From: a bacterium
Lineage (GTDB): Bacteria; Patescibacteriota; Saccharimonadia; Saccharimonadales; DATKHC01
Reading direction: 5' to 3'
Length of the DNA stretch: 64,000 nucleotides
NCBI GenBank assembly: GCA_021781215.1
Contig: JAJXXC010000002.1
Coordinates: 147,371-211,370, forward strand
Part shown: one piece after another, positions 1,007 to 49,640 of the stretch
Numbering within the stretch: position 1 is the stretch's first letter
Layout of the letters: each line of letters opens with the position of its first letter
Made by a program: the position numbers and the translations under genes
Notes under the pieces: model-generated
Databases searched by the model: none
What the model saw: the letters and a program-made list of their open reading frames with translations, nothing else
What the model was told of the DNA's origin: nothing

Positions 1007-1038
1007 ACTAATAGTTTACCCTAAACAGTTATTTCACC

Positions 1039-2133: not shown

Positions 2134-2403
2134 TATTTTTCCTCCGCGCTAGTTAATAATAAATTATTTATATACTTTGTTATAGCTCTTATTGGTCTTG
2201 TGGAAAGGTTGGAAAAGTCAGATTTTACAGAGTAATTGTTTGTAAAAAGTGTTGGGGATAGGCTGTTTATTGAACTAGTATTGGTGGGTATAAAACAGGG
2301 GTTTGTACCACTCACTAAAATTAATATTTTTTTAGCAGCGTATAAACTACCAGCTAATACACTAACAAACCACAACCTATCCACAACTAAAAAGCTACCA
2401 GGG
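2134..2403. promoter_or_regulatory. dnaA-dnaN intergenic region with DnaA-box-like 9-mers (possible second oriC module)
   Basis: CTATCCACA at 2377..2385 (+). CTTTCCACA on the minus strand at 2199..2207. AT-rich run about 2321..2336. The 92-aa ORF 2133..2411 that fills this gap has no recognisable features. Confidence 0.45.
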
Positions 2404-3789: not shown

Positions 3790-4085
3790 ATCTTTCTTTA
3801 AACTCCCTCACACTTTTTAGATTTAAAAGTTTATATCAATCACTATACCGACTTTGCGGTGACTTTTCCACAGGGAAATTAAAACCAATTTTTTATAAAC
3901 CATAAATTAGTCTTACAAGAGTAAAAGTTGTACACATTAATAGTCAACACCTATAAAGTCGTGGAAAACATTTGGGATTTAGTGGAAAAGCTGATACTAT
4001 TAGCGCATAAATATTGTTAATTTCACGCCGAGACAAAATCCGGTTTGACTAACAACTAACAAAGCCAATAAACTTATATAACATT
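3790..4085. promoter_or_regulatory. oriC candidate / DnaA-box cluster between dnaA and rpmH
   Basis: TTTTCCACA at 3864..3872 (+). TTTTCCACG (minus) at 3960..3968. TTTTCCACT (minus) at 3981..3989. A 296-bp non-coding AT-rich spacer between divergent dnaA and rpmH, the classical origin position. Confidence 0.6.
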
Positions 4086-4223
4086 ATGCCAAAGCGAACC
4101 TATCAACCAAAAAAACGTCATCGAGCTCATGAGCACGGATTTATGAAGAGAATGGCTACCAAAGCCGGTAGGTCAGTTCTTAAGCGTCGCCGAAATAAGG
4201 GACGAACTAAACTTAGCTACTAA
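4086..4223 (+). CDS. rpmH: 50S ribosomal protein L34
   Basis: Too short for the ORF track. My translation is [45 protein letters not shown] (45 aa, TAA at 4221..4223), the canonical L34 sequence. Followed by rnpA. Confidence 0.95.
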
Positions 4224-4242
4224 TTTCATCTATACTAATTAA

Positions 4243-4587
4243 ATGATTAGTCGAGAGAATAGATTCCATGGTCATGGATCACTAAAATATACCTATCGCA
4301 GGGGAGAAACCATTAGGGGACCGCTGTGTTCAACTAAGTATGTATTCAATCCTCGCCGAGATAAATACAGACTCGCAGTAGTTGTTAATAAGAAAGTAAA
4401 TAAGTCAGCAGTGGTTAGAAATAAAATTCGGCGGCAAATATACGAGGTTGTTAGATTGATCTCAGAACAAATTAATAGTCCTTGCGATTTGGTAATTACG
4501 GTTTTCAGCGATCAGATTCTAGAAATTAGTCACGATGAGCTAGTAGTAATGATAAAAGCCCAGTTTAGCCAGGCCAAAATTATTTAA
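4243..4587 (+). CDS. rnpA: Ribonuclease P protein component
   Basis: 114-aa basic protein immediately after rpmH. Contains KSAVVRNKIRRQIYEVVR, matching the RNase P protein RNR-type motif. Confidence 0.9.
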   Translation: MISRENRFHGHGSLKYTYRRGETIRGPLCSTKYVFNPRRDKYRLAVVVNKKVNKSAVVRNKIRRQIYEVVRLISEQINSPCDLVITVFSDQILEISHDELVVMIKAQFSQAKII

Positions 4588-4634
4588 TAAACGACCCGAA
4601 CTAGTAATAAAAAGTATGTTTTAACACCGTATAG

Positions 4635-4661
4635 GTGCATAGTGTACTGTGCACTATGCAC
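4635..4661 (+). terminator. Perfect 10-bp stem hairpin after rnpA (weak intrinsic terminator or regulatory hairpin)
   Basis: GTGCATAGTG (4635..4644), loop TACTGTG, CACTATGCAC (4652..4661). Followed only by the weak U tract TATTTGTG. Confidence 0.3.
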
Positions 4662-4848
4662 TATTTGTGCCATCATACCCCAAAAAACACTATCCAAAAC
4701 TGAAGATAGAATCATTAACGCCAGAGAAACAATTGAGATCGATGATAATAGACACTACGATAACGTATTGCTAATAGATGATATGGTTGGGTCTGGCTCA
4801 GCGAAGCTTAGAGCGCTACTCGATGACAGGTATTTGTTTGACGAATGA
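4642..4848 (+). pseudogene. Remnant of a ComF-like / type I phosphoribosyltransferase gene (C-terminal fragment)
   Basis: 68-aa GTG-started ORF. ..DRIINARETIEIDDNRHYDNVLLIDDMVGSGSA resembles the R..N..F.V....VLLVDDVxTTGAT PRPP-binding region of ComF/PRTases. It lacks the N-terminal domain and the normal C-terminus, and its start overlaps the hairpin at 4635..4661. Confidence 0.35.
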
Positions 4849-4947
4849 ATCAAGATTCGAAACTTGGCAGTTCTGATGATAATAAAAAGTAGGCTTAAAT
4901 AACCATCATGTTATTATAGATACATATAAACAATCCGGGAGACTTAT

Positions 4948-5895
4948 ATGTTCGCGTCCATTTTTCAAGTCATAATTGTAAAACCAATATTTAATCTTTT
5001 AGTAGCTATTTATGCTGTTTTGCCAGGTCATAATTTCGGTCTAGCACTGATTTTATTCACCATTGTTATAAGGCTATTAATGTGGCCACTGGTTAAAAAA
5101 CAACTTCATCAGGCCAAGGCAATGCGCCAACTCCAACCAGAAATTAAAAAGATTAAAGCCGCCTCTAAGGGTAATCGTCAAGAAGAATCCAGAATGTTGA
5201 TGGAGCTCTACAAGGAAAGAGATATTAGTCCGTTTGGCTCAATTGGTACTCTTGTAATTCAGTTTATAGTTTTAATTGGCTTATATTCTGGGTTAAGAGA
5301 CGTAGTGTCTCATCCGTCAGTAATAATTAGCGGCTCGTATTCATGGCTAACTAGCATTAGTTGGATGAAGCAATTGGCTGGGAATATTCACTTGTTCGAC
5401 GCCACACTGCTTCATAGCGTCGATTTAACTAAGTCTGCGCTGAAACCCGGTGGTGGAATATATTGGCCAGCTATGGTTATAGTGGTTGCCAGTGCTATCA
5501 CTCAGTACTATTCAAGTAAACAAATAATGCCGACCTCTAAAGATTCGAGAAGCCTGAAGACAATTCTAAAAGATGCCGGCAAGGGCTCCAAGGCCGACCA
5601 GTCTGAAGTTAGTGCAGCGGTTGGAAAAACTACCAGGTATTTTATTCCAGTGATGATTTTCTTCTTTACCGTAGGTCTTCCATCGGCCCTAAGCCTTTAT
5701 TGGTTTGTTGGCGGATTAATAGCCTTCTTACAACAGGGCTATATATTACGAAAGGGCGAAGAAGAATTTGAAGTTATTGCTGATGCTCCGGCTAAATCTA
5801 AATCAGCCAGACCAGTTGTTAAATCAGAAGTGATTTCTAAAAAACCATCAGACCAGACAGACGGAGTTAAAATAACTAAAAAGGGCAGTAAGTAA
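4948..5895 (+). CDS. yidC: Membrane protein insertase YidC (short, monoderm type)
   Basis: 315-aa polytopic protein. LLMWPLVKKQLHQAKAMRQLQPEIKKIK matches the YidC/Oxa1 motif. Position after rnpA is conserved. GGGAG Shine-Dalgarno upstream. Confidence 0.9.
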   Translation: MFASIFQVIIVKPIFNLLVAIYAVLPGHNFGLALILFTIVIRLLMWPLVKKQLHQAKAMRQLQPEIKKIKAASKGNRQEESRMLMELYKERDISPFGSIGTLVIQFIVLIGLYSGLRDVVSHPSVIISGSYSWLTSISWMKQLAGNIHLFDATLLHSVDLTKSALKPGGGIYWPAMVIVVASAITQYYSSKQIMPTSKDSRSLKTILKDAGKGSKADQSEVSAAVGKTTRYFIPVMIFFFTVGLPSALSLYWFVGGLIAFLQQGYILRKGEEEFEVIADAPAKSKSARPVVKSEVISKKPSDQTDGVKITKKGSK

Positions 5896-6356
5896 TGGAA
5901 GAGTCAATTGTTTTCGCTAAAAAATATCTCGAAGATGTCCTGTCGTTTTTTGGATTTAATACCGAAGTAGTGGCCTCATCTGACGATGAAGTAATTGAGC
6001 TATCTATCCCCTCGTCGCACTTAAATGGGTTTTTAATTGGCCAGCGCGGCGAGACAATGCGAGCCCTGCAATACCTAGTTGGCAGCGCACTTAGAAATGG
6101 CAGCTACGGCGTTAGTAGAATAAATATTGACGTGGCTGATTATAAAAAGGCCAAAGCTGAAGTTTTAGCACACAGGGTTGATGAATGGGTCGAAGTCGTG
6201 AAAAACACTAAAGAACCCATGGCGCTTCAACCAATGAATTCAGCAGACCGTAGAATTGTTCACAAGGTGGCTTCTGAAGCTGGGCTTAATACTGAATCGG
6301 TGGGAGAAGGAAGAGACCGACACGTTGTGCTGAAATTGTCTGAAGAAACTAAATAA
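5895..6356 (+). CDS. jag: Jag/KhpB-type RNA-binding protein (KH + R3H domains)
   Basis: 153 aa. Start overlaps the yidC stop. R3H region ..MNSADRRIVHKVASEAGLNTESVGEGRDRHVVL. Conserved yidC-jag pairing. Confidence 0.85.
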   Translation: MEESIVFAKKYLEDVLSFFGFNTEVVASSDDEVIELSIPSSHLNGFLIGQRGETMRALQYLVGSALRNGSYGVSRINIDVADYKKAKAEVLAHRVDEWVEVVKNTKEPMALQPMNSADRRIVHKVASEAGLNTESVGEGRDRHVVLKLSEETK

Positions 6357-8905: not shown

Positions 8906-9135
8906 CTATAGTATTCTAACACCCCTAGCAACCGACGTGATCTACGGATGCACTAAATGATTCACCCTATGAATTAACTAATATTTATATAAACAGATAA
9001 AAACATCGAATATTTTATCGCCTTTTACTATTTATATAAATATAGAGACATATATTATTTTATTTTTTATTCCAAGAGGTATATAGTGCAAATTAATAGA
9101 AAGTGGTGGTGGCCTTCTCTAGCCTAGGTATCATC

Positions 9136-9975
9136 ATGAACAAAAAAACGTCAAAAACAACTAACAAGCAAGCAAGTAGTAGTTTAACTCCAAGATCAGT
9201 AGTGATTACTAAGCAGCAATTACTAATATTAACTAGGATATATAATTTTAGATTTGTTAGTACGGCTCAATTGCAGCAATTATTAGCCAAGAAGCAACTT
9301 CAACAAGTCCAACAACGATTGAATTTATTACTTAAACGTGGCTATATTGGTCGAAACTTTAGCAATCAGGATAGATTAACTGGCAGGTATGCTTCCTATT
9401 ATCTTTTACCAAAGGGCATGAAGGTCCTCAGGCAACATCAAATTAAACTAGATGTTAAATTAAATTCTAAAGTACTCCACAATATTTATAAGGACAAAAC
9501 TGCCTCCACCAGGTTTATTAATCATTGCCTCGGCGTAGGAGACATTAATTGTCATTTAAAGCGGTTGTACGGCGAGGATATCGAATTTATTTCTAAGAGC
9601 AAATTAGCAGACTATGATTTCCTGCCCAACCCTTTGCCAGATGCCTTTATAAGACAAGATAAAACCCAAGAATATTTTCTTGAATACTGCGAAGAGATAG
9701 TACCTTTTTTTGTATACAGAAAAAGAATTAAACAATATGTTGAGGTATATATTGAGGAGGGAGCCTGGAAAGATGCAACTGGCACAGAATTGCCAACCAT
9801 ACGACTGGTTGCTGAAACGCCGGTACTACAAAGAAGACTAAAAAGATTTATTACCAAGTACCTTAATAATTTATATATGGGCACAGGTGCTAGATTCTTA
9901 ATAACCAACCTGGAACGGCTTAAAACCTCGGATAGCCAATTTATATGGAGTGTAATAATCCAAGAAGAAGAGTAG
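9136..9975 (+). CDS. Replication-relaxation-like winged-helix protein (hypothetical)
   Basis: ORF track starts at GTG 9103; ATG at 9136 (MNKKTSK..) is more likely. ITKQQLLILTRIYNFRFVSTAQLQQLL....QQRLNLLLKRGYIGR resembles the N-terminal wHTH of the Replic_Relax family. Flanked by long AT-rich spacers. Confidence 0.4.
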   Translation: MNKKTSKTTNKQASSSLTPRSVVITKQQLLILTRIYNFRFVSTAQLQQLLAKKQLQQVQQRLNLLLKRGYIGRNFSNQDRLTGRYASYYLLPKGMKVLRQHQIKLDVKLNSKVLHNIYKDKTASTRFINHCLGVGDINCHLKRLYGEDIEFISKSKLADYDFLPNPLPDAFIRQDKTQEYFLEYCEEIVPFFVYRKRIKQYVEVYIEEGAWKDATGTELPTIRLVAETPVLQRRLKRFITKYLNNLYMGTGARFLITNLERLKTSDSQFIWSVIIQEEE

Positions 9976-36971: not shown

Positions 36972-38804
36972 TTATTCTACAGTAACTGACTTGGCTAGAT
37001 TACGAGGTCTATCAACATTTCTACCTAGTGCCATAGCCATATGATAGGCAAATAAATGTAGTGCCGTGGCTACAACCAATGGTTGAGTTTGCTCAAGAGT
37101 CTTTGGTACGTAGATAACGTCATCAGTATATGACTTAATAGATTTATTTCCTTCAGATACTAAGGCAATAATCGGTCCACCACGAGCCTTAATCTCAGAT
37201 ATATTTGAAAGAGTTTTATCGGTCATAGTTGAGTCGGTTGCAATCACAAAAGTTGGAAAGTTAGCGTCAATCATCGCCAGCGGTCCGTGTTTCATCTCAC
37301 CGGCCGCATAACCTTCGGCATGGATATAGGTCAACTCTTTTAATTTTAAAGCACCCTCTAGGGCACACGGATAAGCGTAGCCTCGTCCCATAAAGATGAA
37401 ATCTTTATATTTAGAGTATTTTTTAGCCAGTTGTTCTATGTTTTTAGATTGACCAAGAATAGAGACTATTTTTTCAGGCAGGATTGATAGTTCATCAACC
37501 AGTGGCTTAAATAGGGGTGAATTACCGTTACTAAGGCTTAATGCTATTTCGGTTAAGACCGTGACTTGGGCTATAAAAGCTTTAGTACTAGCTACGGATA
37601 GTTCGGGTCCAGCATGACAGTAGACTCCGGCATCAGTAATTCTAGATATAGTAGAGCCGATAGCGTTAACGATGCCTAACTTTAGTACCCCATAGTTCTC
37701 AACCTTTTTTATGGCGGCGATAGTATCAGCTGTCTCACCAGACTGAGATATGGCAATTAGGGCAGTACTCCTAGAAAACGGTTCAGATCTATATTTAAAC
37801 TCAGACGCCAATTGGACCTCAACCGGCAACCCGGCAATCTCCTCGATTAGGTATTCGCCAACCAGTCCAGCGTAATATGAAGTTCCACAGGCAGCAATTA
37901 CTATTCGATCGATGTACTTTAACTGTTCTTTCACATTCTCAAGTCCACCGAGTTTAATAATATTTGATCCACTGCGAACTCTTCCGGCAGAAGCTAATCT
38001 AACTGTTTCTGGTGAGTCGAAAATTTCTTTCAATAAATAGTTCGGAAAATTACCAAGTTTAGCTTTTTCTAAATCGAAATCTAGTTCCTCGGTTTTGGGA
38101 ATTATTTCAGTCTTTCGTTTAAAGTTATGTATCTTAACAGATTTATTGGTTAAAACCGCCATTTCGTAATCTTTGAGATAAACTACCTGCTTGGTGTGGT
38201 TAATTATTGCCGACGCATCTGATGCCACATAATTTTCTTTATTGCCAATACCGATTAGCAGGGGGCTAGATAAGCGCGCTACGTAAATAGAATCTGGGGT
38301 TTTAGTGTATAAAGCCGCAATTGCATAGGCACCGTGAAGGTCATCTAGGGCTCTTGTGAAGGCTTGTTTAAAAGTCTTTTCTGTCTTTAAATAATAATCA
38401 ATTAAGTGAGGTATAACTTCTGTATCGGTATCAGATATAAATTTATAGCCTTCGTTTTCCAGTAAGATTTTTATTTCTTTGAAGTTTTCAATTATTCCGT
38501 TGTGTACGACGAAAATTGTATTACTAGAATTTGAATGAGGGTGAGCGTTTATTGTTGTCGGAGCACCATGTGTTGCCCAGCGAGTATGGCCAATACCAAT
38601 AATTGCATTCATAGCCTCGTCATTATGCGTAACTTCCTGGTCAAGTAATTCTACTCGCCCCACCTGCTTTATATTGATAGGCTGATGATCATTAATTACC
38701 GCAACTCCAGCCGAATCATAACCCCTATATTCTAATGACTTAAGCCCATCGATTAGTGGCTTAACAACACTTTTATTACTGACTATCCCAACAATTCCAC
38801 ACAT
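36972..38804 (-). CDS. glmS: Glutamine--fructose-6-phosphate aminotransferase
   Basis: 610 aa. MCGIVGIV N-terminal nucleophile. Two SIS domains. C-terminus ..NLAKSVTVE. Confidence 0.97.
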   Translation of the reverse strand: MCGIVGIVSNKSVVKPLIDGLKSLEYRGYDSAGVAVINDHQPINIKQVGRVELLDQEVTHNDEAMNAIIGIGHTRWATHGAPTTINAHPHSNSSNTIFVVHNGIIENFKEIKILLENEGYKFISDTDTEVIPHLIDYYLKTEKTFKQAFTRALDDLHGAYAIAALYTKTPDSIYVARLSSPLLIGIGNKENYVASDASAIINHTKQVVYLKDYEMAVLTNKSVKIHNFKRKTEIIPKTEELDFDLEKAKLGNFPNYLLKEIFDSPETVRLASAGRVRSGSNIIKLGGLENVKEQLKYIDRIVIAACGTSYYAGLVGEYLIEEIAGLPVEVQLASEFKYRSEPFSRSTALIAISQSGETADTIAAIKKVENYGVLKLGIVNAIGSTISRITDAGVYCHAGPELSVASTKAFIAQVTVLTEIALSLSNGNSPLFKPLVDELSILPEKIVSILGQSKNIEQLAKKYSKYKDFIFMGRGYAYPCALEGALKLKELTYIHAEGYAAGEMKHGPLAMIDANFPTFVIATDSTMTDKTLSNISEIKARGGPIIALVSEGNKSIKSYTDDVIYVPKTLEQTQPLVVATALHLFAYHMAMALGRNVDRPRNLAKSVTVE

Positions 38805-39929
38805 TTATATATTGTCTTTCATAGATTTAGCAATTTTTTTATTTACTAAGTCTACCATGTTCTTTTTAAACTCTGAGGCATCAAATTTCTCAGCCGACTT
38901 AGCTACCACTTTCGAATCAAATTGGTCTGATTTAAACGACTTCATGGCTACCGTTAACCAATCAGCGGTCTGTTTGTTAAAGAAGAGGCCGTTTACGCCT
39001 TCAACAATATAATCTGTTGCTCCGCCACCCTTATAGGCAATTACTGGCGTACCAGCAGCTAAAGCCTCTACGGCAACAATTCCAAAATCATCTATGCCCG
39101 GGAAAATAAAAGCTTCGGCTGAGGCAACGTATCTAGCTACTTCATTGTCTGATGCATTGGTTACGAATTTAACACTAGGTCCTGCAATGCTAACGAGGCG
39201 TTGATGTTTTGGGCCATTGCCAATAACTGTTAATGGCACAGCTAGTTGGGTGGCTGAAGCTACTGCTAGATTAATTTTTTTATACGGTGTTTGGCGGCCG
39301 ATTGCTATAAAACCTTTTCGCACTAGTTTTTTATCTGAAACATTAAATCTTTTAATATCAACTGGGGGGTAAATTACCTCAGAGTCACGGCCGTAGTATT
39401 TTTTGATCTGTTGTTTGGTGAAGTTTGAGTTAGCAATTAAAAACTGAGGCTTTTGAGCAGCCATATAATCCAGCCGTCTAAGTGGACCGACTAATATTTT
39501 TAGACCAATTCTAGCTAACCAATCAAGTTTGCCAAATCCGGGATTCTTTAGGTAATCGTTATATCTCATCCAATAATAGTGAGTGGGCGCATGACAATAA
39601 CATATGTGAATAGTATTTTTGCCAGTTTTAACTGCTTTAGCCTCAGCTCCACTTGATGAAATAACCAGATCATACGAGCTTAAGTCTAGCCGCCTAAAGG
39701 CAATAGCTCTAAGCGGTGGTAGAAACTTTTTTAAACTCTTAGGCAAGCGTTGCAGCCATAGGGTGCGAATATCAGCGTCCACGAACCAATCTATGGCAGT
39801 AGGGTCATATTGAGAGGTATATATGGGGGCTTTAGGGTATAGTTTATGTAGTTCTAGTACAACTCTCTCAGCTCCGCCAATCCCAGTTAGCCAGTCACAG
39901 ACGATTGCAACTTTTAAGTCTTTTTTCAT
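38805..39929 (-). CDS. Glycosyltransferase, GT4 family
   Basis: 374 aa. AFIFPGIDDFGIVAVEALAAGTPVIA EX7E-type motif. Its stop abuts the glmS start. Confidence 0.85.
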   Translation of the reverse strand: MKKDLKVAIVCDWLTGIGGAERVVLELHKLYPKAPIYTSQYDPTAIDWFVDADIRTLWLQRLPKSLKKFLPPLRAIAFRRLDLSSYDLVISSSGAEAKAVKTGKNTIHICYCHAPTHYYWMRYNDYLKNPGFGKLDWLARIGLKILVGPLRRLDYMAAQKPQFLIANSNFTKQQIKKYYGRDSEVIYPPVDIKRFNVSDKKLVRKGFIAIGRQTPYKKINLAVASATQLAVPLTVIGNGPKHQRLVSIAGPSVKFVTNASDNEVARYVASAEAFIFPGIDDFGIVAVEALAAGTPVIAYKGGGATDYIVEGVNGLFFNKQTADWLTVAMKSFKSDQFDSKVVAKSAEKFDASEFKKNMVDLVNKKIAKSMKDNI

Positions 39930-39931
39930 AT

Positions 39932-41374
39932 CTATCTTGCACCATCTCGGCTAAATATTACTCGTAGGGTTTTGAATAAAATTGTCAGATCCAGCCAAAA
40001 GCTCCAGTTTTGAACGTAGTAAAGATCGATCTTAGCCCGCTCGTAATAATCAATATTACTCCTACCGCTTACTTGAGCTAGTCCGGTAATTCCAGTTTTT
40101 ACACTCAAAAGAAGTGAACTTTTGTCTTTATAGTATTTTAATTCTTCCGGAACGACTGCTCGGGGTCCAACTAGAGAAATATCTCCCTTGATAACATTAA
40201 TTAGTTGCGGAATCTCGTCTAGGCTATATCTTCGAATTATTTCGCCAATTTTACTAATCCTTGGATCATCAGTTAGTTTTTTCGAACCTGCGAACGCTTC
40301 AGCTAAATCATTTCTTCCCATTGATTTGAATGCTTCGACCGGATCATGCCCACTATATTTTCTTTTCATAGTTCTAAATTTATAAACATTGAATGCAGTA
40401 TTAAACCTAGTGACTCTTTTCTGCCTAAAAATAATTGGGCCTGGATCAAAAATAAGCATCAAGATAATAAGAATCAGTATTAATGGTGAGAGAATAGCTA
40501 ATACTAAAATTGAAAGACTAATATCGAACAATCTTTTAGCGATCCTACCCCATCCAACTAGAGGGGTTTGGTGAACCGATATTACCGGAACCGAAGATCT
40601 AAATAGCTCAACTTCTATATTGCCTACAAATAATTCAGTATTTCCAGGGATAAATCGATAGGCGCTGTGATTGGTTTGAGCATAGGACAAAATCTGGTTA
40701 TTTTTAAGTGGTCCACTATATAGTTCGGTCTGAATAATGCTGCGGATTTTATCTGTACCTAATTTCTCACAAGCCAAGTCAAAGGACTCGAACACCGGTA
40801 TTGAGTTAAATTTTGAATTCAAATGATCTTTGGGGCCAACAATACCCACAATTTTGTATCCCGAAGTAGCCGAATCAAATAATGACTCAACCAAGTAGTG
40901 GGTGGCGTCAGTATTGCCAACAATTAAAACACTGGTAATCCCATAACCAATCTTGTATAGGTGAAATTTTAATCTTCTGGCTATGGTCCTAAAGCCAACA
41001 AGTAGGGCAAAAGAAAAAATAAATCCGTAGACTGCAACCAAGTGGGCTGGGAAGATAGTTTGATTTAGTCCATAACTATAGCCAATGATTAGTAGGATAC
41101 CGATAAATGAACCAATAAACAGTTTGCCAATTTCAGTGAATCGCTTCTCAATCAGGTCATTTTTGTATAGGCCAATTAAGGCGAACATTAGGATCCAGAT
41201 CGGAACTAGTAAAAAGAAAGCTTGAATATAGGTAGATGCTCCTAGTGGGTGATAAATATGCGAATGATCTAACGACACTCTAAGAATATAGGCAACAACG
41301 AAAGCTAAAAGGACAGAAAAGAAATCCCCAATAATCAGAAAGACATTATAAAGCAGGGATGAATTACTTTTCAT
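39932..41374 (-). CDS. Initiating polyprenyl-phosphate glycosylphosphotransferase (WbaP/WsaP-like bacterial sugar transferase)
   Basis: 480 aa. 4-5 N-terminal TM. C-terminal PGPIIFRQKRVTRF...FNVYKFRTM...DEIPQLINVIKGDISLVGPRA is the Bac_transf catalytic domain. Confidence 0.9.
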   Translation of the reverse strand: MKSNSSLLYNVFLIIGDFFSVLLAFVVAYILRVSLDHSHIYHPLGASTYIQAFFLLVPIWILMFALIGLYKNDLIEKRFTEIGKLFIGSFIGILLIIGYSYGLNQTIFPAHLVAVYGFIFSFALLVGFRTIARRLKFHLYKIGYGITSVLIVGNTDATHYLVESLFDSATSGYKIVGIVGPKDHLNSKFNSIPVFESFDLACEKLGTDKIRSIIQTELYSGPLKNNQILSYAQTNHSAYRFIPGNTELFVGNIEVELFRSSVPVISVHQTPLVGWGRIAKRLFDISLSILVLAILSPLILILIILMLIFDPGPIIFRQKRVTRFNTAFNVYKFRTMKRKYSGHDPVEAFKSMGRNDLAEAFAGSKKLTDDPRISKIGEIIRRYSLDEIPQLINVIKGDISLVGPRAVVPEELKYYKDKSSLLLSVKTGITGLAQVSGRSNIDYYERAKIDLYYVQNWSFWLDLTILFKTLRVIFSRDGAR

Positions 41375-41398
41375 AGGCTATAATAAATTGTAACACTT

Positions 41399-42718
41399 AT
41401 GGACAAATCTTTAACCTCAAGACTGGTTAGTATAACTAAAATAGTTGTATTAATAATTTTACTACTAATGCCGTTCCATGAGTTTCTGACTACTTGGCTG
41501 GCTAGTAATTTTGGTCATATCTATTTATTTAGAATTTGGAAAGAGATAGTTTTATTACTAATTAGTCCGATAATTATTTATCTAGCATTAACTAACAAGA
41601 ATCTAAAAAAGTGGTTATTAAAAGATAAATTGATTCGGTTAATTCTACTATTCACAGTTATAGCGATTATATTAGGCATAGTCGGATATTATCAGAAACG
41701 AGTTAATCTGTCGGCTCTAGCGGTAGGGGCAATAATTGATCTTAGACTGTTTTTAATATTTTTGTTTAGCCTAGTCATCACTTACTACAGCGACTTCTTT
41801 AAGAAATACTGGAAACAAATATTGATTTATCCAGCCTTAGCAGTAATAGCTTTCGGTATTGCTCAGTTATTTCTACCGATAGATTTTTTGAGACATTTTG
41901 GTTACGGCCCAAATACTATTCCAGCCCTTCAGACCGTTGATCAGCAGCTAGGCTTGCACCGTATCCAATCTACGCTTCGTGGCGCTAATCCGTTTGGTAC
42001 CTACTTGATACTAATTGCTCCAATATTCATTTTCTTTAGCACTAGGGATCGAATAGTCAGGATAGTCTCTAGTTTAATCTCACTAATTGCTATGTTTTTC
42101 ACCTATTCAAGAAGTGCCTATATTGGTCTAGCAATTACTATCGGAATAATCTTCTACTATTTAAAATTTGAGAATAACCCATTCTTCATTAAATATAAAA
42201 AAGTGGTCTATTATTTGATCATTGGGGTAGTGATATTGGCTATTGCTGGCCTTCTAGCTTTTCGCAATAATCCAACTTTCGATAATATCTTTTTCCATAC
42301 TAATAAGTACTCTAAAGCCAGTACCTCATCCAATAGCGTCAGGCTATCTGATTTAAAGACTAATTCTATGAATATGATTGACCATCCTCTGGGCCAGGGA
42401 CTTGGTGTTGCCGGTCCGGCATCGGTGCACAATAACCACCCAACGATGATTGCTGAGAATTTCTATATTCAAATTGGTCAAGAGACCGGTTTGTTGGGGC
42501 TAATTATCTTCCTAGCAATTAACATCATTGTGGGCTATAGATTATTCGTACAAAGGCGAGACCCATTGTCACTATTCTTGCTGGCGAGTTTAGTTGGCAT
42601 CTCGGCAGTCAACATGGTTTCGCATGCTTGGGCGGATGATACCTTGAGTCTAATGTGGTGGGCGCTTGCCGGTGTGGCGCTTAGCCCTAAATTAGCTAAG
42701 ATCAAGGCTAATCAATGA
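41399..42718 (+). CDS. O-antigen ligase / Wzy_C-family polytopic membrane protein
   Basis: 439 aa with about 11 predicted TM. Central FTYSRSAYIGLAITIG followed by an extracytoplasmic loop, typical of the Wzy_C (WaaL/PglL/WsaB) family. Confidence 0.7.
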   Translation: MDKSLTSRLVSITKIVVLIILLLMPFHEFLTTWLASNFGHIYLFRIWKEIVLLLISPIIIYLALTNKNLKKWLLKDKLIRLILLFTVIAIILGIVGYYQKRVNLSALAVGAIIDLRLFLIFLFSLVITYYSDFFKKYWKQILIYPALAVIAFGIAQLFLPIDFLRHFGYGPNTIPALQTVDQQLGLHRIQSTLRGANPFGTYLILIAPIFIFFSTRDRIVRIVSSLISLIAMFFTYSRSAYIGLAITIGIIFYYLKFENNPFFIKYKKVVYYLIIGVVILAIAGLLAFRNNPTFDNIFFHTNKYSKASTSSNSVRLSDLKTNSMNMIDHPLGQGLGVAGPASVHNNHPTMIAENFYIQIGQETGLLGLIIFLAINIIVGYRLFVQRRDPLSLFLLASLVGISAVNMVSHAWADDTLSLMWWALAGVALSPKLAKIKANQ

Positions 42719-43179
42719 AAACCTGGGCAAAAATCCAGCTCAAGATACGAGAAGGCGAGAAGAAGAGCTATAAGCAGGTGATTAATTATCTAATAGGCGG
42801 CGGTTTATATTTTATTACCGGATACCTAACTTTTTATTTGCTATATCATTTTCTGAATTGGACACTATTTTATGCCACGATTATTTCTAACGTTGTTGGC
42901 TGGACAGTTAATTATTTTATCAACCGATTCTGGGTATTCGAGCACCCTTCGTTGAAAAAAAACGCATTAAAAATTTCTACCAAATATACCATTTTGACAT
43001 TAGCCGATTTTTTAATTAGTTATTTAATTCTTAAAGGACTCAAAGCTATAGGGATTAGTCCGTATATTGGCCAATTTATCTCAGCCATTGGCTTTTTTAC
43101 TATTTGGAATTATTACTGGTATAAACTCTGGGTATTTAAAGTGCCATCAGGTAAGCTAAAATCAAATATAATTATATAG
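42715..43179 (+). CDS. GtrA-family membrane protein
   Basis: 154 aa. INYLIGGGLYFITGYL and WNYYWYKLWVF hallmarks. ATGA overlap with the upstream gene. Confidence 0.75.
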   Translation: MKTWAKIQLKIREGEKKSYKQVINYLIGGGLYFITGYLTFYLLYHFLNWTLFYATIISNVVGWTVNYFINRFWVFEHPSLKKNALKISTKYTILTLADFLISYLILKGLKAIGISPYIGQFISAIGFFTIWNYYWYKLWVFKVPSGKLKSNIII

Positions 43180-43182
43180 ACT

Positions 43183-43212
43183 ATGGTAGAGGTCATTCAG
43201 CCAACTAAAAAC
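43183..43212 (+). repeat. Ghost copy of the 5' end of the lexA-like gene (direct repeat, left copy)
   Basis: AGACTATGGTAGAGGTCATTCAGCCAACTAAAAAC versus AGACTATGACAGAAATCATTCAGCCAACTAAAAAAC at 44466..44501. Exact 19-nt core TCATTCAGCCAACTAAAAA at 43193..43211 and 44481..44499. The ghost reads MVEVIQPTKNIKNRYFLK then stop. Confidence 0.85.
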
Positions 43213-43241
43213 ATAAAAAACCGATATTTCTTAAAGTAGAC

Positions 43242-43271
43242 TTTACAAATTATCGGGATATTTTGTATAAT
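43242..43271 (+). promoter_or_regulatory. Sigma-70-type promoter of the ATPase gene
   Basis: TTTACA (43242..43247), 18-nt spacer, TATAAT (43266..43271), then 9 nt to ATG 43281. Confidence 0.55.
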
Positions 43272-43280
43272 ATAGATATT

Positions 43281-44450
43281 ATGTATATACACAGAGACGT
43301 AGAAGATCAGCTAAAAAATTTCTTAAAAGATGATAAAATCGTTATTTTATTAGGTGCTAGGCAAGTAGGCAAGACGACCATGCTAGAACCTTTTATACAA
43401 AACGCTAAAGGTTTGTTACTCAATTGTGATATAACCGTTGATAAAAATAGGCTGATGGCTGCGAGCACCCTAGCGCCAGATGAGGCTATGAAATTTCTTG
43501 GTAGTCCATCATTAATTGTTATTGATGAAGCACAGAATTTGCCTGATATTGGTAGAATCGTAAAAGGTTGGTACGATGCTCATGTTGCTACTAAAATTGT
43601 CTTACTTGGATCATCTAGCCTTGATTTATTAGACCTTACAGCCGAACCATTAACTGGTCGAAATGAGAAACAGTATCTAACCCCACTTTTGTTCTCGGAA
43701 ATTCTCAAGAGCCAGGCTTGGTATTCACTTCATATAACTCAGAATATGTTAAAAGAGCAGTTTAATAGCCAGATTCAAACCTTATTACTCCAGCAAATGG
43801 TTTTTGGTTCATATCCGGCTACTGTCACCTCTGGTGATAAAGAAAAATATCTGCTAAATTTGACCTCAGATTATCTTTTAAAAGATGTCCTCCAGGGTGG
43901 ACTCGTAAAATCTCCGGAACCTGTTAAGCGATTACTTGAGGCTTTAGCACACCAGTCTGGGGGTGAGGTGGTTATCGATGAGTTACAAAAAATGTTACGA
44001 ATATCTAGACAAACTATAGAGAGCTATTTAGATTTATTGGAGCGTTCTTATGTCATTTTTCGGGTTAGAGCCTTTAGTACAAATCAACGAAAAGAGATCG
44101 CGAAGACTTCAAAAATATTTTTCTGGGATACGGGAATAAGAAATGCCTTGCTGAAGGAATTCTCTATTTCTCCCTCACGCAGTGATATAGGCTTACTATT
44201 TGAAAATTGGGTAATTGCTGAAATCGCAAAACAAAACCTAATGTCGGGTAATAGAAATACATTGTATTTTTGGCGTAAAATTGAAGGCAGTGAGGTTGAT
44301 CTCATAGTTAAGGGGACTAATACATTTAAAGCCTATGAATTTAAGTGGTCAAAACAGAATCCAACGTTTGGGTCTAAAAGCTTTACCAATACATACGATA
44401 TCCCGGTCGAAATTATCACAAAGGATACGGTCATCGATCTGTTAATCTAA
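43281..44450 (+). CDS. AAA+ ATPase, AAA_14 + DUF4143 architecture
   Basis: The track start TTG 43263 lies inside the -10 box; ATG at 43281 (MYIHRDVEDQ..) is more likely. Walker A GARQVGKTT and Walker B LIVIDEAQ. C-terminal ..FENWVIAEI...EVDLIV region typical of DUF4143. Confidence 0.8.
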   Translation: MYIHRDVEDQLKNFLKDDKIVILLGARQVGKTTMLEPFIQNAKGLLLNCDITVDKNRLMAASTLAPDEAMKFLGSPSLIVIDEAQNLPDIGRIVKGWYDAHVATKIVLLGSSSLDLLDLTAEPLTGRNEKQYLTPLLFSEILKSQAWYSLHITQNMLKEQFNSQIQTLLLQQMVFGSYPATVTSGDKEKYLLNLTSDYLLKDVLQGGLVKSPEPVKRLLEALAHQSGGEVVIDELQKMLRISRQTIESYLDLLERSYVIFRVRAFSTNQRKEIAKTSKIFFWDTGIRNALLKEFSISPSRSDIGLLFENWVIAEIAKQNLMSGNRNTLYFWRKIEGSEVDLIVKGTNTFKAYEFKWSKQNPTFGSKSFTNTYDIPVEIITKDTVIDLLI

Positions 44451-44470
44451 AATATAAGGATAATAAGACT

Positions 44471-44926
44471 ATGACAGAAATCATTCAGCCAACTAAAAAA
44501 CAAAGAGAGCTACTGTCGTTTATTGAAGGGTTCATTGAGGCGCATGGCTATAGCCCAAGTTATCGCGAAATTATGGCTGGGTTGAATTATACGTCCGTGG
44601 CTACAGTTTCATTGCATATTAATAATTTAATTAATCGAGGCCATTTAGCTAAGCGAGATCGATCTGCTAGATCGCTATACCTAATAAAACCAAGCCTAAA
44701 GATCAGTGGCGTTAAGACTAATCAGATTAAACCAGAAGAAGAGAAATGGTTAGTTAAAAAAGTCGAATATTATTTTGAAAAAGTCGAAGCGGCGTCAGTA
44801 ATTGAATCTAGCTATCTTGATGAGCTATATGTTTTAGTCGGTGCCCTAAATGTCTTGGGTCTGATTGGTGCCGCTCAGAGTTTTATGCCAAGGTTAACCG
44901 AGCTCAAGGCTAGACGAGATCTGTAG
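44471..44926 (+). CDS. LexA-type winged-helix DNA-binding protein lacking the S24 peptidase domain
   Basis: 151 aa. PTKKQRELLSFIEGFIEAHGYSPSYREIMAGLNYTSVATVSLHINNLINRGHLAKRD matches the LexA N-terminal DNA-binding domain. The C-terminal 70 aa have no Ser/Lys dyad motifs. Confidence 0.65.
   Translation: MTEIIQPTKKQRELLSFIEGFIEAHGYSPSYREIMAGLNYTSVATVSLHINNLINRGHLAKRDRSARSLYLIKPSLKISGVKTNQIKPEEEKWLVKKVEYYFEKVEAASVIESSYLDELYVLVGALNVLGLIGAAQSFMPRLTELKARRDL
44904..44921 (+). repeat. 18-bp exact direct repeat, left copy (3' end of the lexA-like gene)
   Basis: TCAAGGCTAGACGAGATC, identical to 45692..45709. The two copies bracket one TA operon. Confidence 0.9.
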
Positions 44927-44952: not shown

Positions 44953-45216
44953 TTATCTATAAAGCTGGCTGTGTGTACCGCAAGCAACAAACCAAGCTAC
45001 GGTTTCATTATCAGTAAGCTCAAAATGAGCTCGCCAGTCACCCCCAAAAGCTATAGAACGATAACCTTTCCATTCACCTGTCAGCGGGTGATTATATAAG
45101 TCAGGATGTTTCGGTTGGTTTTGAAATAGCTTGATTGCTTCTTCTAGTCGCTTTTTTTGTGCTGGTTTTAAACTAACTGCTTGCTTAATGAAATCCTTGT
45201 GAAGCTTGATGATCAT
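44953..45216 (-). CDS. Type II toxin, RelE/YafQ-family mRNA interferase
   Basis: 87 aa. NHPLTGEWKGYRSIAFGGDWRAHF......GTHSQLY fits the RelE/YafQ pattern. 4-nt overlap with the upstream antitoxin. Confidence 0.8.
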   Translation of the reverse strand: MIIKLHKDFIKQAVSLKPAQKKRLEEAIKLFQNQPKHPDLYNHPLTGEWKGYRSIAFGGDWRAHFELTDNETVAWFVACGTHSQLYR

Positions 45217-45491
45217 TGCAAGTTTTTAAAGAAATCATCTAGTTCGGCTTCATTATTAATAGTAGTGTAGTTACGACCCGCTTTACGATCCGCCAAGGCC
45301 TCACGCATAATCTTTTCGAGGTAAGGAGTAGGTTCAAGCGTAGGTGATAGTACTACGCGGCCTTCTTTAACTGCTTGCTTTAAGACAACAGTAACAAATG
45401 CGCTGACGGATAGGCCAACAGAATTAGCGAATTCGGTAATATCTTTTTTTGTCCTATCATCAGTCCTAATACTTAGTAATGCGTTGCTCAT
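45213..45491 (-). CDS. Type II antitoxin, RelB/DinJ-family ribbon-helix-helix
   Basis: Start taken at ATG 45491 (MSNALLSIRTDDRTKKDITEFANSVGLSVSAFV..), 9 nt downstream of a consensus promoter. The track start at 45512 would lie inside that promoter. Confidence 0.75.
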   Translation of the reverse strand: MSNALLSIRTDDRTKKDITEFANSVGLSVSAFVTVVLKQAVKEGRVVLSPTLEPTPYLEKIMREALADRKAGRNYTTINNEAELDDFFKNLQ

Positions 45492-45691: not shown

Positions 45692-45709
45692 TCAAGGCTA
45701 GACGAGATC
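45692..45709 (+). repeat. 18-bp exact direct repeat, right copy
   Basis: TCAAGGCTAGACGAGATC, identical to 44904..44921. Confidence 0.9.
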
Positions 45710-45771
45710 CGTTGGTATTTAACTTGTGCCGTAGAATTTGCCGAAAAAGACTATGGGCGTGAAAATTTTCC

Positions 45772-45807: not shown

Positions 45808-46062
45808 ATGAATAAAGTTATTACTATCCATGAGGCTAAGACCAATCTATCGAAGTATATAAAACAAGCTAGAACCGGTGAGCCAGTTTATATCGGTGGA
45901 TACGGAATACAAGAAGTGGTTCTTGTGGCTGCAAAACCCAAGAATAGTGTTATTAAATTTGGCACCGCGCAGAGTAAAATACAATACATTAACAGCACAC
46001 TAGAAGGAGCTGACCCAGATATACGGCAAATGTTTTACGAGGAAAGCCAGGCCTTAAATTGA
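45808..46062 (+). CDS. Type II antitoxin, Phd/YefM family
   Basis: 84 aa. MNKVITIHEAKTNLSKYIKQARTGEPVYI is the typical Phd/YefM N-terminus. Confidence 0.8.
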   Translation: MNKVITIHEAKTNLSKYIKQARTGEPVYIGGYGIQEVVLVAAKPKNSVIKFGTAQSKIQYINSTLEGADPDIRQMFYEESQALN

Positions 46063-46145
46063 ACCCTTTATTAGACACCAATGCTCTTGTCTAGATACTC
46101 GCATGGGCACATATAGAAAACTCGAACTTATTAATTTCAGATTAA
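46059..46145 (+). pseudogene. Decayed PIN-domain (VapC-like) toxin remnant
   Basis: TTG overlaps the phd stop (ATTGA). Reads LNPLLDTNALV, then stop (TAG 46092..46094), then ILAWAHIENSNLLISD, then stop. LLDTNAL is the first acidic PIN motif. Only about 28 codons remain. Confidence 0.45.
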
Positions 46146-48607: not shown

Positions 48608-49008
48608 TTCTATTTTTAGTTTATGTGGATCATTTTATGTTAGTTAATGGATTATTCAAAAACCTATTGACTTAAATATAACGCTTATGTCAGAATATTA
48701 CTACTTCAAAAAATAAAGGGCTAAAACTCTTTAGAAGACAAAAATTTCAAAATAAAAAAATCGTCAATATTTTTGTGGTGGAAATATGACGAGTGCAATG
48801 GGAGAGATACAAAGTAATATGCCAATTGAAATAAAAATAATAGCTTCAAGGAGCAAAAAAGTGGAAGTCAAAATAAAAAAACAATACTGGCAAAGGTTTC
48901 TAACTTACTAATACTGTAATTATCGTTGATGCTTTACAAGTAGAACGAATATTACGGTGAGTGTGATTCACTGTAATATTGACATTATAGTGAATTGTCA
49001 CAGCACCT

Positions 49009-49269
49009 TTATTTGTATAATTGAGAGTGTTTTCCGACAGCAACAAATCTAGCCGTATCTTTATCTTGCTGGATGTAGTGCGCTCTCCAGTCACCGCCAA
49101 AAGCAATTGAACGGTGATTTTTCCATTCACCTGATAGTGGGTGATTATATAAATTTGGATTAGTCGGATCGTTTCGGAATATTATAATAATTTCTTCAAA
49201 TCGTCTTTTTTGCGTAATCGGTAGTTTAGAGTATTGTTTGATAAACTGTTTATGAAAAACAGTTTTCAT
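49009..49269 (-). CDS. Type II toxin, RelE/YafQ family (paralog of 44953..45216)
   Basis: 86 aa. NHPLSGEWKNHRSIAFGGDWRAHY......GKHSQLY. Roughly half the residues are identical to the first copy by eye. Confidence 0.8.
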   Translation of the reverse strand: MKTVFHKQFIKQYSKLPITQKRRFEEIIIIFRNDPTNPNLYNHPLSGEWKNHRSIAFGGDWRAHYIQQDKDTARFVAVGKHSQLYK

Positions 49270-49541
49270 AATGACCGTAAATATCCTAGCGTTTCTTCAT
49301 CGGTATCAGTTGATACTAGCTCTTTACTTATTCTATAGTCAGATTCAGCCTCTTTAATTATAGATTTAAGATAGGGGGTAGGTGTGAGATTGGTATTGAA
49401 TTCGACTTTTCCAGTCCTAAGTATCTGTTTTATTTGAGCATTTAATAAAGATGAAACCGGTAGACCAATTTGCTGGGCAAAGTTTTTAATCTGCTCTTTG
49501 GTTTCAGGATCAGTCTTGATGTTTAGTATAGCTGTGTTCAT
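49266..49541 (-). CDS. Type II antitoxin, RelB/DinJ family (paralog of 45213..45491)
   Basis: 91 aa. MNTAILNIKTDPETKEQIKNFAQQIGLPVSSLL. 4-nt overlap with the toxin gene. Confidence 0.75.
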   Translation of the reverse strand: MNTAILNIKTDPETKEQIKNFAQQIGLPVSSLLNAQIKQILRTGKVEFNTNLTPTPYLKSIIKEAESDYRISKELVSTDTDEETLGYLRSL

Positions 49542-49548
49542 AGTATAG

Positions 49549-49578
49549 ATTATATGACTATTGTGTATATATTGTCAA
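49549..49578 (-). promoter_or_regulatory. Consensus promoter of dinJ-yafQ-like operon 2
   Basis: The minus strand reads TTGACA, 18 nt, TATAAT, then 7 nt to ATG 49541 (apparently leaderless). Confidence 0.6.
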
Positions 49579-49640
49579 TATGTATTGTACGATTCCTGGG
49601 GTTGAAAGGATTAGTATTATAAGCGTGCTAAAATGTTAGC

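Follow-up and report, generated by a model that had tools for sequence, protein, structure and literature searches.

A one-gene ATPase-nuclease cassette at the gtrA–lexA-like boundary of a Saccharimonadales genome, flanked by a duplicate of that boundary

How does a single accessory gene come to stand between two core genes that it leaves intact? The question is raised by a 64-kb stretch of contig JAJXXC010000002.1 (assembly GCA_021781215.1), referred to here as the window, in which the gene of an AAA_14/DUF4143 ATPase-nuclease lies between a gtrA-like and a small lexA-like gene of a Saccharimonadales bacterium. An earlier note on this DNA had seen a ghost of the lexA-like start directly after the gtrA stop, and had proposed that the ATPase gene was inserted into the 5' end of the lexA-like gene and regenerated that end. 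The empty sites of relatives and the functional downstream start bear this out: a single self-promoted ATPase-nuclease gene has been inserted where two core genes meet and is flanked by a duplicate of their boundary, with gtrA whole on the left, the lexA-like gene whole on the right and both neighbours kept intact. The features of the locus are as follows.

42715..43179, forward strand: gtrA-like membrane protein gene, 154 amino acids (Pfam GtrA_DPMS_TM, E 1.9e-17), its last ~15-20 nt inside the left repeat copy
43165..43211, forward strand: left copy of the duplicated target, with the gtrA tail including TAG, an ACT spacer and the ghost lexA-like start (ATG 43183 plus 9 codons), contiguous with gtrA as in empty sites
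43212..43241, forward strand: junction or filler between ghost and cassette promoter, where other cassettes lack homology (blastn matches start at 43232-43241; the alignment to relative L001 ends at 43221)
43242..43271, forward strand: cassette promoter, TTTACA, 18-nt spacer, TATAAT, predicted to be of sigma-70 type, with 11/12 consensus positions the best site in the region
43281..44450, forward strand: AAA_14/DUF4143 ATPase-nuclease gene, 389 amino acids (Pfam DUF4143 1.3e-36, AAA_14 6.9e-25; PADLOC PDC-S01 1.2e-109)
44451..44499, forward strand: right copy of the duplicated target, with a degenerate gtrA tail including AAGGA (44456-44460), ACT and the functional lexA-like start (ATG 44471)
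44471..44926, forward strand: lexA-like gene, 151 amino acids (Pfam LexA_DNA_bind, PF01726, E 2.3e-13, residues 8-67)

What did the site look like before? Contigs chosen by their nearest lexA-like homologues, L001-L004 (93% amino-acid identity), L005/L006 (88%), L009/L010 (81%) and L149-L151, represent four lineages in which the gtrA stop is followed after 2-3 nt by the lexA-like ATG, with no ATPase gene between. This is the direct adjacency for which a synteny check had been suggested, and the presence of empty sites in eight relatives from four lineages identifies the 1.24-kb cassette, one promoter and one ATPase gene, as an insertion. More broadly, of 55 related loci most have a gtrA orthologue immediately before the lexA-like gene. 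Aligned to the window by blastn, L001 falls into three blocks: 1-4831 (window 38392-43221), 4769-5236 (window 44444-44915) and from 5300 onwards (window from 46194). The first two overlap, positions 4769-4831 being found twice in the window in copies ending at 43221 and starting at 44444, so that ~60 nt of the empty site are present twice. The upstream lexA-like start is a dead copy; the possibility, allowed for earlier, that both copies are real genes in relatives disagrees with the single lexA-like gene found directly behind gtrA in all of them.

A repeat search of the window delimits the duplicate as a two-copy direct repeat of 34 nt, 43178-43211 and 44466-44499, with 30/34 matches (88%) and starts 1288 nt apart. 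Its 19-nt exact core, TCATTCAGCCAACTAAAAA, occurs exactly twice in the 64 kb, even at 3 mismatches allowed, compared with a chance expectation of 0.04 and two matches in 0/100 shuffles; a search for further copies, which had been proposed for the genome, was run on the window with the core and returned the two repeat copies only. Gapped local alignment stretches the repeat to the left, 43165-43211 against 44451-44499, with a score of 26 compared to a maximum of 15 in 200 shuffles, and the similarity, which might have vanished under proper statistics, held. The extended repeat takes in the last bases of gtrA, the TAG stop and the ACT spacer; as it reaches 43165 once gaps are allowed, the gtrA tail is also part of the duplicate, a point that the earlier note had overlooked. 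Of the mirrored pair that it described, 43180..43212 and 44466..44501, the repeat and the core stand, and the start moves to 43178, or to 43165 with gaps. Overall, the left and right copies are 82-88% identical. The ghost itself is an open reading frame of 18 amino acids at 43183-43239, translating MVEVIQPTKNIKNRYFLK before its stop, which does lie directly after gtrA: its ATG, 3 nt past the gtrA stop, occupies the exact place of the true lexA-like ATG in relatives. It can be traced to ~43221-43223 if a 1-nt deletion in an A run is allowed, and its similarity breaks off abruptly after 10-13 codons; the first ~10 nt of the filler 43212..43241 may be degenerate lexA codons 10-13.

The occupied structure is real and fixed in this species. 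Exact copies of the window GtrA and lexA-like proteins were found on 7-8 contigs from at least 5 samples, all of them occupied and with identical junction sequences, and no empty allele was seen among these contigs. As the two repeat copies differ from each other, an assembly artefact is excluded. Several independent assemblies of the same species (L187-L189, L191, L192) break inside the ATPase gene, which would fit a gene that is multi-copy or variable in those communities.

Is the cassette confined to one lineage? The 55 metagenome loci that we examined for the lexA-like gene include one contig, L096, which begins inside an ATPase gene whose product is 97% identical to that of the window; a spacer and the lexA-like gene follow. 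The 20-nt spacer matches at 19/20 nt; the lexA-like gene of L096 is 77.2% identical to that of the window at the nucleotide level and 90% to that of the empty-site group L149-L151. Window and L096 thus agree at 197/215 positions (91.6%) over the ATPase 3' end and spacer, in contrast to 352/456 in the lexA-like gene (Fisher p 3e-6). With the cassette at 92%, the lexA-like gene at 77% and L149-L151 empty, the same cassette therefore occupies the same junction in a second lineage whose close relatives lack it, and on the evidence of these identities it can be said to have spread laterally between lineages. The spacer, AATATAAGGATAATAAGA(C/T)T, is a degenerate gtrA tail unlike the real gtrA tails of both hosts and therefore travels with the cassette, instead of being a fresh copy made from each host. 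It is around the lexA start, and not far inside the gene, that the two genomes drop from 92% to 77% similarity. At lexA codons 2-4, which are hypervariable in the family, the window reads ACA GAA ATC and L096 CCA GAA TCA; both are unlike the ghost or the relatives with empty sites, and from codon 5 the sequences agree again.

What is the mobile unit? The nearest relatives of the ATPase, 77-80% identical at the amino-acid level, each have another context: between GDSL lipase and HIT genes, between truB and rpsO, and between ndk and small open reading frames. DNA homology with three relatives (L012, L014, L015) begins near the -35 box (43232-43241) and ends near the stop codon (44419-44452) in blastn comparisons, and in two of these, L014 (4908-6278) and L015 (4908-6279), a sharp-edged unit of 1372 nt, 88% identical, is found at two unrelated loci, between truB and rpsO and beside ndk. 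No conserved termini, terminal inverted repeats or short duplications were seen at this unit. Given homology only from promoter to stop and a sharp-edged unit, the mobile entity is essentially a promoter and one gene, in line with the earlier description of the interval as holding only the ATPase gene with its own TTTACA/TATAAT promoter. In the window, no inverted repeat pairs the two insert ends, the GC content of the cassette (36%) equals that of the host, and at the right junction 7 bases, AATCTAA, are common to the ATPase 3' end and the ancestral gtrA tail. The promoter-like site, which is conserved in the nearest relatives, holds an inverted motif, TACAAAT...ATTTTGTA, that related ATPase genes have kept upstream as well: L012, L014 and L015 share CTTTACAAATTATCGGG, and L020, L022 and L023 have similar motifs. 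This motif, which may be an operator for autoregulation by the winged helix of the ATPase protein, recurs among the cassettes as TACAAA...TTTGTA together with a conserved start, ATGTATAT(A/C) (window 43242-43290; L014/L015 ~4960-5000; L020, L022, L023, L037).

The encoded protein matches the PADLOC profile PDC-S01 (PDLC04789) over its full length (residues 1-388, E 1.2e-109), as well as Pfam DUF4143 (126 bits) and AAA_14 (88 bits), both over their cut-offs. It comprises an AAA+ ATPase, a winged helix and an intact PD-(D/E)XK motif, with G25-K31-T32-T33 (Walker A), D82-E83 (Walker B) and D340...E353-x-K355 invariant in 44 homologues. An AlphaFold2 model (pLDDT 87) has an alpha/beta C-terminal domain, and a fold search with it returned only generic AAA+/STAND/ORC/RuvB/MuB/TnsC similarity; the PDB holds no sequence relative. 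DUF4143 is counted among the PD-(D/E)XK families (PMC3424549), and PDC-S01, an ATPase fused to a PD-(D/E)XK domain, is described as ranking fourth in frequency among prokaryotic 'defences' and as a very abundant family that is exchanged across domains and awaits experimental validation (PMC12988326). The PDCs, PDC-S01 included, were nominated as defence candidates because they are embedded in other systems or operons (bioRxiv 10.1101/2024.01.29.577857). Judged by its profile match, the window gene is thus a candidate anti-phage defence gene. It shares with PDC-S01 (AAA_14 plus DUF4143, COG1373) the full-length match, the single-gene unit and the conserved ATPase and PD-(D/E)XK motifs, yet it stands between two housekeeping genes of a small-genome bacterium of the Candidate Phyla Radiation (CPR), not in a defence operon, and neither flanking target duplications nor mobility of the gene itself is mentioned in the PDC-S01 literature cited here. 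Viral contigs hold no close homologue and 28 distant ones (22-36% identity); the best homologues in a plasmid collection are only 34-39% identical.

Is the scar peculiar to this locus? We surveyed 48 ATPase loci from species-representative genomes (homologues 49-80% identical, from Patescibacteria, Verrucomicrobiota, Lentisphaerota, Gammaproteobacteria and others), aligning the 800 nt upstream of the gene against the 800 nt downstream at a threshold score of at least 20, with 159 intervals of the same length, displaced by 2.1 or 2.9 kb, as controls. Direct repeats flank 11/48 ATPase loci compared with 5/159 controls (Fisher p 7e-5). Six of the 11 are clean two-copy duplicates of neighbouring sequence, five of these from the 3' part of a gene or tRNA.

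L040: repeat of 47/47 nt, the 3' 35 nt of tRNA-Ala plus 12 nt
L020: repeat of 76/76 nt, the 3' end of cysS
L022: repeat of >166 nt, ~80% identical (first 91 nt 92%), with an intact GT4 glycosyltransferase gene and its 132-amino-acid C-terminal fragment (C-terminal third) after the ATPase gene
L046: repeat of 128 nt, 88% identical, the C-terminal part of an epimerase
L059: repeat of 39/40 nt, inside the 3' part of an anti-sigma gene
L073: repeat of 54/56 nt, a neighbouring stretch without an identified gene

In the 5/5 cases that involve a gene or tRNA, one intact copy of it is kept, and no recombinase lies between the two repeats. For the window, L022 and L046, the ATPase stop codon is where the right-hand copy starts. 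The duplicate measures 47-60 nt in the window and ~40 to ~400 nt across the family; ~75% of the surveyed loci are without a repeat, and two (L023, L041) have weak ones. Four loci (L037, L042, L038, L048) are flanked by dispersed multi-copy repeats and are not to be counted as target duplications; in L037 (3699-3916 / 5250-5468) and L042 (692-951, 2540-2670, 4052-4222), from Verrucomicrobiota, a dispersed repeat of ~130-270 nt flanks the ATPase gene in both orientations. None of the 28 distant homologues on viral contigs has flanking repeats. Empty sites in this analysis belong to the gtrA–lexA-like locus alone; for L020, a cysS search found no relative above 49% identity.

The far end of the lexA-like gene bears a similar scar. 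The earlier note had described the 3' end as also duplicated, around a toxin-antitoxin cassette, and this is indeed what we find: a repeat of 21 nt (20/21) brackets a 0.77-kb YafQ/RelB cassette.

44904..44924, forward strand: second repeat, left copy, TCAAGGCTAGACGAGATC[T/C]GT, the true lexA-like 3' end (...ELKARRDL, then stop)
44953..45491, reverse strand: YafQ/RelB cassette, with a YafQ/ParE-type toxin (44953-45216) and a RelB-type antitoxin (45213-45491) by Pfam, and a promoter-like site at 45530-45501
45692..45712, forward strand: second repeat, right copy, TCAAGGCTAGACGAGATC[T/C]GT, a ghost lexA-like 3' end (EFKARRDP), stop lost
48893-49617, reverse strand: third toxin-antitoxin insertion, relative to L009, with YafQ (49009-49266) and RelB (49266-49541), between a Na+/H+ exchanger and a CBS-domain gene

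The YafQ/RelB cassette is missing, as blastn gaps, from L001, L096, L100 and L101. The right copy of its repeat lies 50 nt upstream of the start of Phd-cassette homology (45763), and in L100/L101 the homologous Phd cassette directly follows the lexA-like stop; the right copy therefore looks like the old in-place 3' end. The Phd/YefM antitoxin gene (45808-46094), after which a PIN (VapC)-type toxin begins but stops within 11 codons (LNPLLDTNALV, then stop), looks like an orphan antitoxin with a truncated toxin. No direct repeat flanks the third toxin-antitoxin insertion; an inverted one of 14 nt (13/14) is present at 48976-48989 and 49568-49581.

From the scars at its two ends, the earlier note had taken the lexA-like gene for an att-like hot spot. 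Some preference for the site is supported by the same junction in L096 and by the variable region downstream of the lexA-like gene, where relatives have RHH-PIN genes, Phd, a distant DUF4143 ATPase on the opposite strand, a 230-amino-acid or a 168-amino-acid open reading frame. The DUF4143 ATPase in question (L005 6510-7643, also L006-L008, of the 88% lineage) is a different one, 35% identical and directly downstream of the lexA-like gene. The notion of a recombinase att site did not fare as well. The search for a cognate recombinase that had been suggested, run as a Pfam scan of the window, found neither a transposase nor a recombinase of the tyrosine or serine type, be it in the 1.24-kb insert or across the ~60 open reading frames of the window; the only mobility-related match is a Replic_Relax protein at 9103-9975. 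Ghost lexA-like 5' or 3' ends occur at 0/40 other lexA-like loci, larger gtrA–lexA gaps in distant relatives hold other genes and no ghost, and the third insertion lacks a repeat. Att-like sites used by a recombinase are thus not established.

By what route, then, did the cassette enter? The insertion with its ~50-60-bp target duplication, the promoter-to-stop limits, the lateral spread and the lack of a classical recombinase in insert and window are shown; the joining chemistry and the break-making enzyme we infer. The account that we favour, tentatively and without calling it probable, is a recombinase-independent, microhomology-assisted duplicative integration, after which the occupied allele spread by recombination. 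The 1.24-kb cassette would have arrived at the gtrA–lexA-like boundary as linear DNA, its two ends joining the chromosome in overlapping order at points ~55 bp from each other, or else at a staggered break with fill-in. What was duplicated comprises ~20 nt of the gtrA end, the 3-nt spacer and 10-13 codons from the start of the lexA-like gene. The left lexA-like start is a non-functional ghost, and the right gtrA tail has decayed to a spacer that carries a Shine-Dalgarno-like site; the occupied allele could then have passed between related lineages by recombination after DNA uptake. Counting for such a course are the empty sites, the repeat statistics, the shared AATCTAA, the lack of a recombinase, the host-like GC content and the identical junctions in at least 5 assemblies, and the YafQ/RelB cassette, bracketed by 21 duplicated nt from the lexA-like 3' end, speaks for a generic route that is not tied to the ATPase. 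Several points weigh against it. A fresh duplication would be exact and the copies are only 82-88% identical, so that the event would be old or one copy donor-derived; this degree of identity does not discriminate, however, and fits an old duplication with drifting ghost halves, the copy that a gene still uses being, in each half, the one that agrees with the outgroups in the gtrA tail. Window and L096 have the degenerate tail in common, which was hence not copied from each host per insertion, and the L096 contig starts inside the ATPase gene, leaving the left junction outside it. To our knowledge, duplicative illegitimate integration with duplications of 50-400 bp is not well documented for natural transformation. 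Finally, the enrichment of repeats in other phyla hints that the cassette itself contributes to the mechanism.

A less likely course, though one to be reckoned with, is a Campbell-type integration, in which a circular cassette with a ~60-bp stretch that mimics the target would be inserted by host homologous recombination, in the manner of attP x attB, with the crossover in the 19-nt core; recombination between the repeat copies would re-excise the circle and could pass it to relatives with the same junction, a step that we consider just as doubtful. This would account for the near-identity of the degenerate gtrA tail beside the ATPase stop in the window and L096 where the hosts' own tails differ, for the drop in similarity around the lexA start, for codons 2-4 that in both genomes depart from the ghost and the empty-site relatives before identity returns at codon 5, and for the frameshifted, degenerate ghost to the right of the core, as expected of an element-borne arm. 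Yet codons 2-4, which should then be element-borne, differ between the window and L096 and are hypervariable in the family anyway, an exact run of 19 nt within a ~50-nt match at 82% is not unusual (p ~0.15, an estimate), 19-60 bp are short for RecA-dependent recombination, and the origin of the first mimic is left unexplained, as are the relatives at unrelated, repeat-free sites (L012, L014, L015). Could the gene instead move itself? An AAA+ motor with a PD-(D/E)XK nuclease might nick twice at variable distance, with joining and fill-in giving long duplications. The enrichment of flanking repeats over controls around subfamily members of other phyla (49-73% identical), the six clean duplicates, the insert that is always a single ATPase gene with invariant catalytic residues, the occurrence of the subfamily across phyla at 50-70% identity and the very definition of PDCs as genes embedded inside other operons (bioRxiv 10.1101/2024.01.29.577857) speak for it. 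We nevertheless regard it as improbable, as this purely sequence-based case has to contend with the lack of conserved element termini, ~75% of loci without a repeat, 0/28 on viral contigs, dispersed multi-copy repeats at four of the repeat-positive loci, merely generic similarities in the fold search and, in the window itself, a like scar around a toxin-antitoxin cassette that has no ATPase gene.

Classical site-specific integration into an att site, catalysed by a recombinase whose gene lies elsewhere in the genome and with the 19-nt core as crossover region, would explain an identical core with diverged arms, a gene end regenerated as in tRNA-targeting islands, the same site in two lineages and the homologue in the 3' end of tRNA-Ala (L040). 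It appears very unlikely in view of the missing recombinase in cassette and window, the close cassette relatives at unrelated sites with unrelated flanks, the repeat length of ~40 to ~400 nt across the family, and a core found nowhere else in the window, with no ghost ends at 40 other lexA-like loci. That the ghost is a decayed tandem paralogue of the lexA-like gene, a chance similarity or an assembly artefact would follow from its similarity alone, and has next to no probability: all relatives have one lexA-like gene directly behind gtrA, the ghost ends abruptly after 10-13 codons, the core has a chance expectation of 0.04, and the junctions are identical in at least 5 assemblies from different samples, with copies that differ from each other, unlike a k-mer artefact. 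The empty sites and the replicated assemblies rule these explanations out.

How does the cassette compare with known mobile elements? Islands and prophages with tyrosine integrases integrate in the ends of tRNA or protein genes and regenerate them, leaving attL and attR. Direct repeats with an identical core, a restored gene end and a homologue in the tRNA-Ala 3' end are shared with these; as to a recurrent site, L096 uses the one of the window, and relatives 77-80% identical use unrelated ones. The cassette, however, has no integrase, measures 1.24 kb with one gene and varies in repeat length across the family. Illegitimate recombination in natural transformation, in its homology-facilitated, double illegitimate and short-patch double illegitimate (SPDIR) forms, resembles it in needing no recombinase and in the microhomology at a junction, here AATCTAA; such events usually replace or delete recipient DNA, however, and the 50-bp duplication of the window is not their typical signature. 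Saccharibacteria have been reported to be naturally transformable. With insertion sequences and transposons the cassette has in common a direct target duplicate flanking a mobile segment, but it lacks a transposase and terminal inverted repeats, and where insertion sequences make short duplications of fixed length, those seen here are of 47-60 nt in the window and of 40, 47, 56, 76, ~128 and >166 nt in relatives. Free-standing homing endonuclease genes are likewise single nuclease genes found at the same site in different lineages beside conserved genes, yet they leave no target duplication, whereas the target in the window is duplicated and close relatives of the ATPase occupy unrelated sites. 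Unlike an integron gene cassette, this one has its own promoter and no integrase in the window, and its stop codon is followed at once by the repeat copy, not by an imperfect palindrome (attC).

Integrative cassettes that regenerate gene ends are thus already known; here such a cassette is reduced to one PDC-S01 gene without a recombinase. The locus offers a well-controlled case, followed to the base, of an accessory gene entering a tightly packed CPR genome with both separated core genes undamaged, one in which occupied sites can be compared with empty ones and with a second lineage that is occupied. That PDC-S01, or at least this subfamily, is an autonomous one-gene mobile element, whose product makes widely spaced breaks and drives its own integration, we consider rather improbable. 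If it were so, variable duplications of ~40-400 bp would regenerate target gene ends, an 'embedded' position would reflect mobility and not necessarily defence, such that 'guilt by embedding' would need re-reading for PDC-S01, and the family would constitute a new kind of recombinase-free mobile unit. If the gene does not promote its own insertion, the scars still record duplicative integration by a route little described in bacteria. The family-wide scars are the part worth following up.

What has the insertion meant for its neighbours? The lexA-like protein is a conserved core protein of Saccharimonadales (7209 homologues, the closest 65-93% identical). It shares the N-terminal DNA-binding winged helix with the LexA repressor, but with 151 amino acids it has no match to Peptidase_S24, the C-terminal self-cleaving domain, and its TIGR00498 match, confined to residues 8-75, scores 49.2 bits against a cut-off of 110.95; an identity as a LexA orthologue was therefore rejected. 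In empty sites, the gene appears from the arrangement to depend on its 3-nt coupling to gtrA, and the native junction has no AAGGA-like motif. In the window, AAGGA (44456-44460), arising from a derived GG in the decayed gtrA tail, lies 10 nt upstream of the lexA-like ATG, and the same change is found in L096; it would be a new Shine-Dalgarno-like ribosome-binding site for the lexA-like gene, which probably rides on the cassette transcript. The lexA-like gene has a somewhat mosaic look, its first ~70 nt being nearer to L005 and the remainder nearer to L001; a donor origin of its 5' end was not borne out by a permutation test of the maximum-chi-square type (p 0.40).

The gene order around the locus is an O-antigen-ligase-like gene (Wzy_C), gtrA, the AAA_14/DUF4143 ATPase gene, the lexA-like gene, YafQ/RelB on the reverse strand, Phd, and RHH plus PIN. 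The window begins at the replication-origin cluster dnaN, dnaA, rnpA, yidC and jag (1039-6356), and most of the remainder is a large polysaccharide-synthesis region that includes three gtrA-like genes as well as the Replic_Relax (replication-relaxation) gene at 9103-9975.

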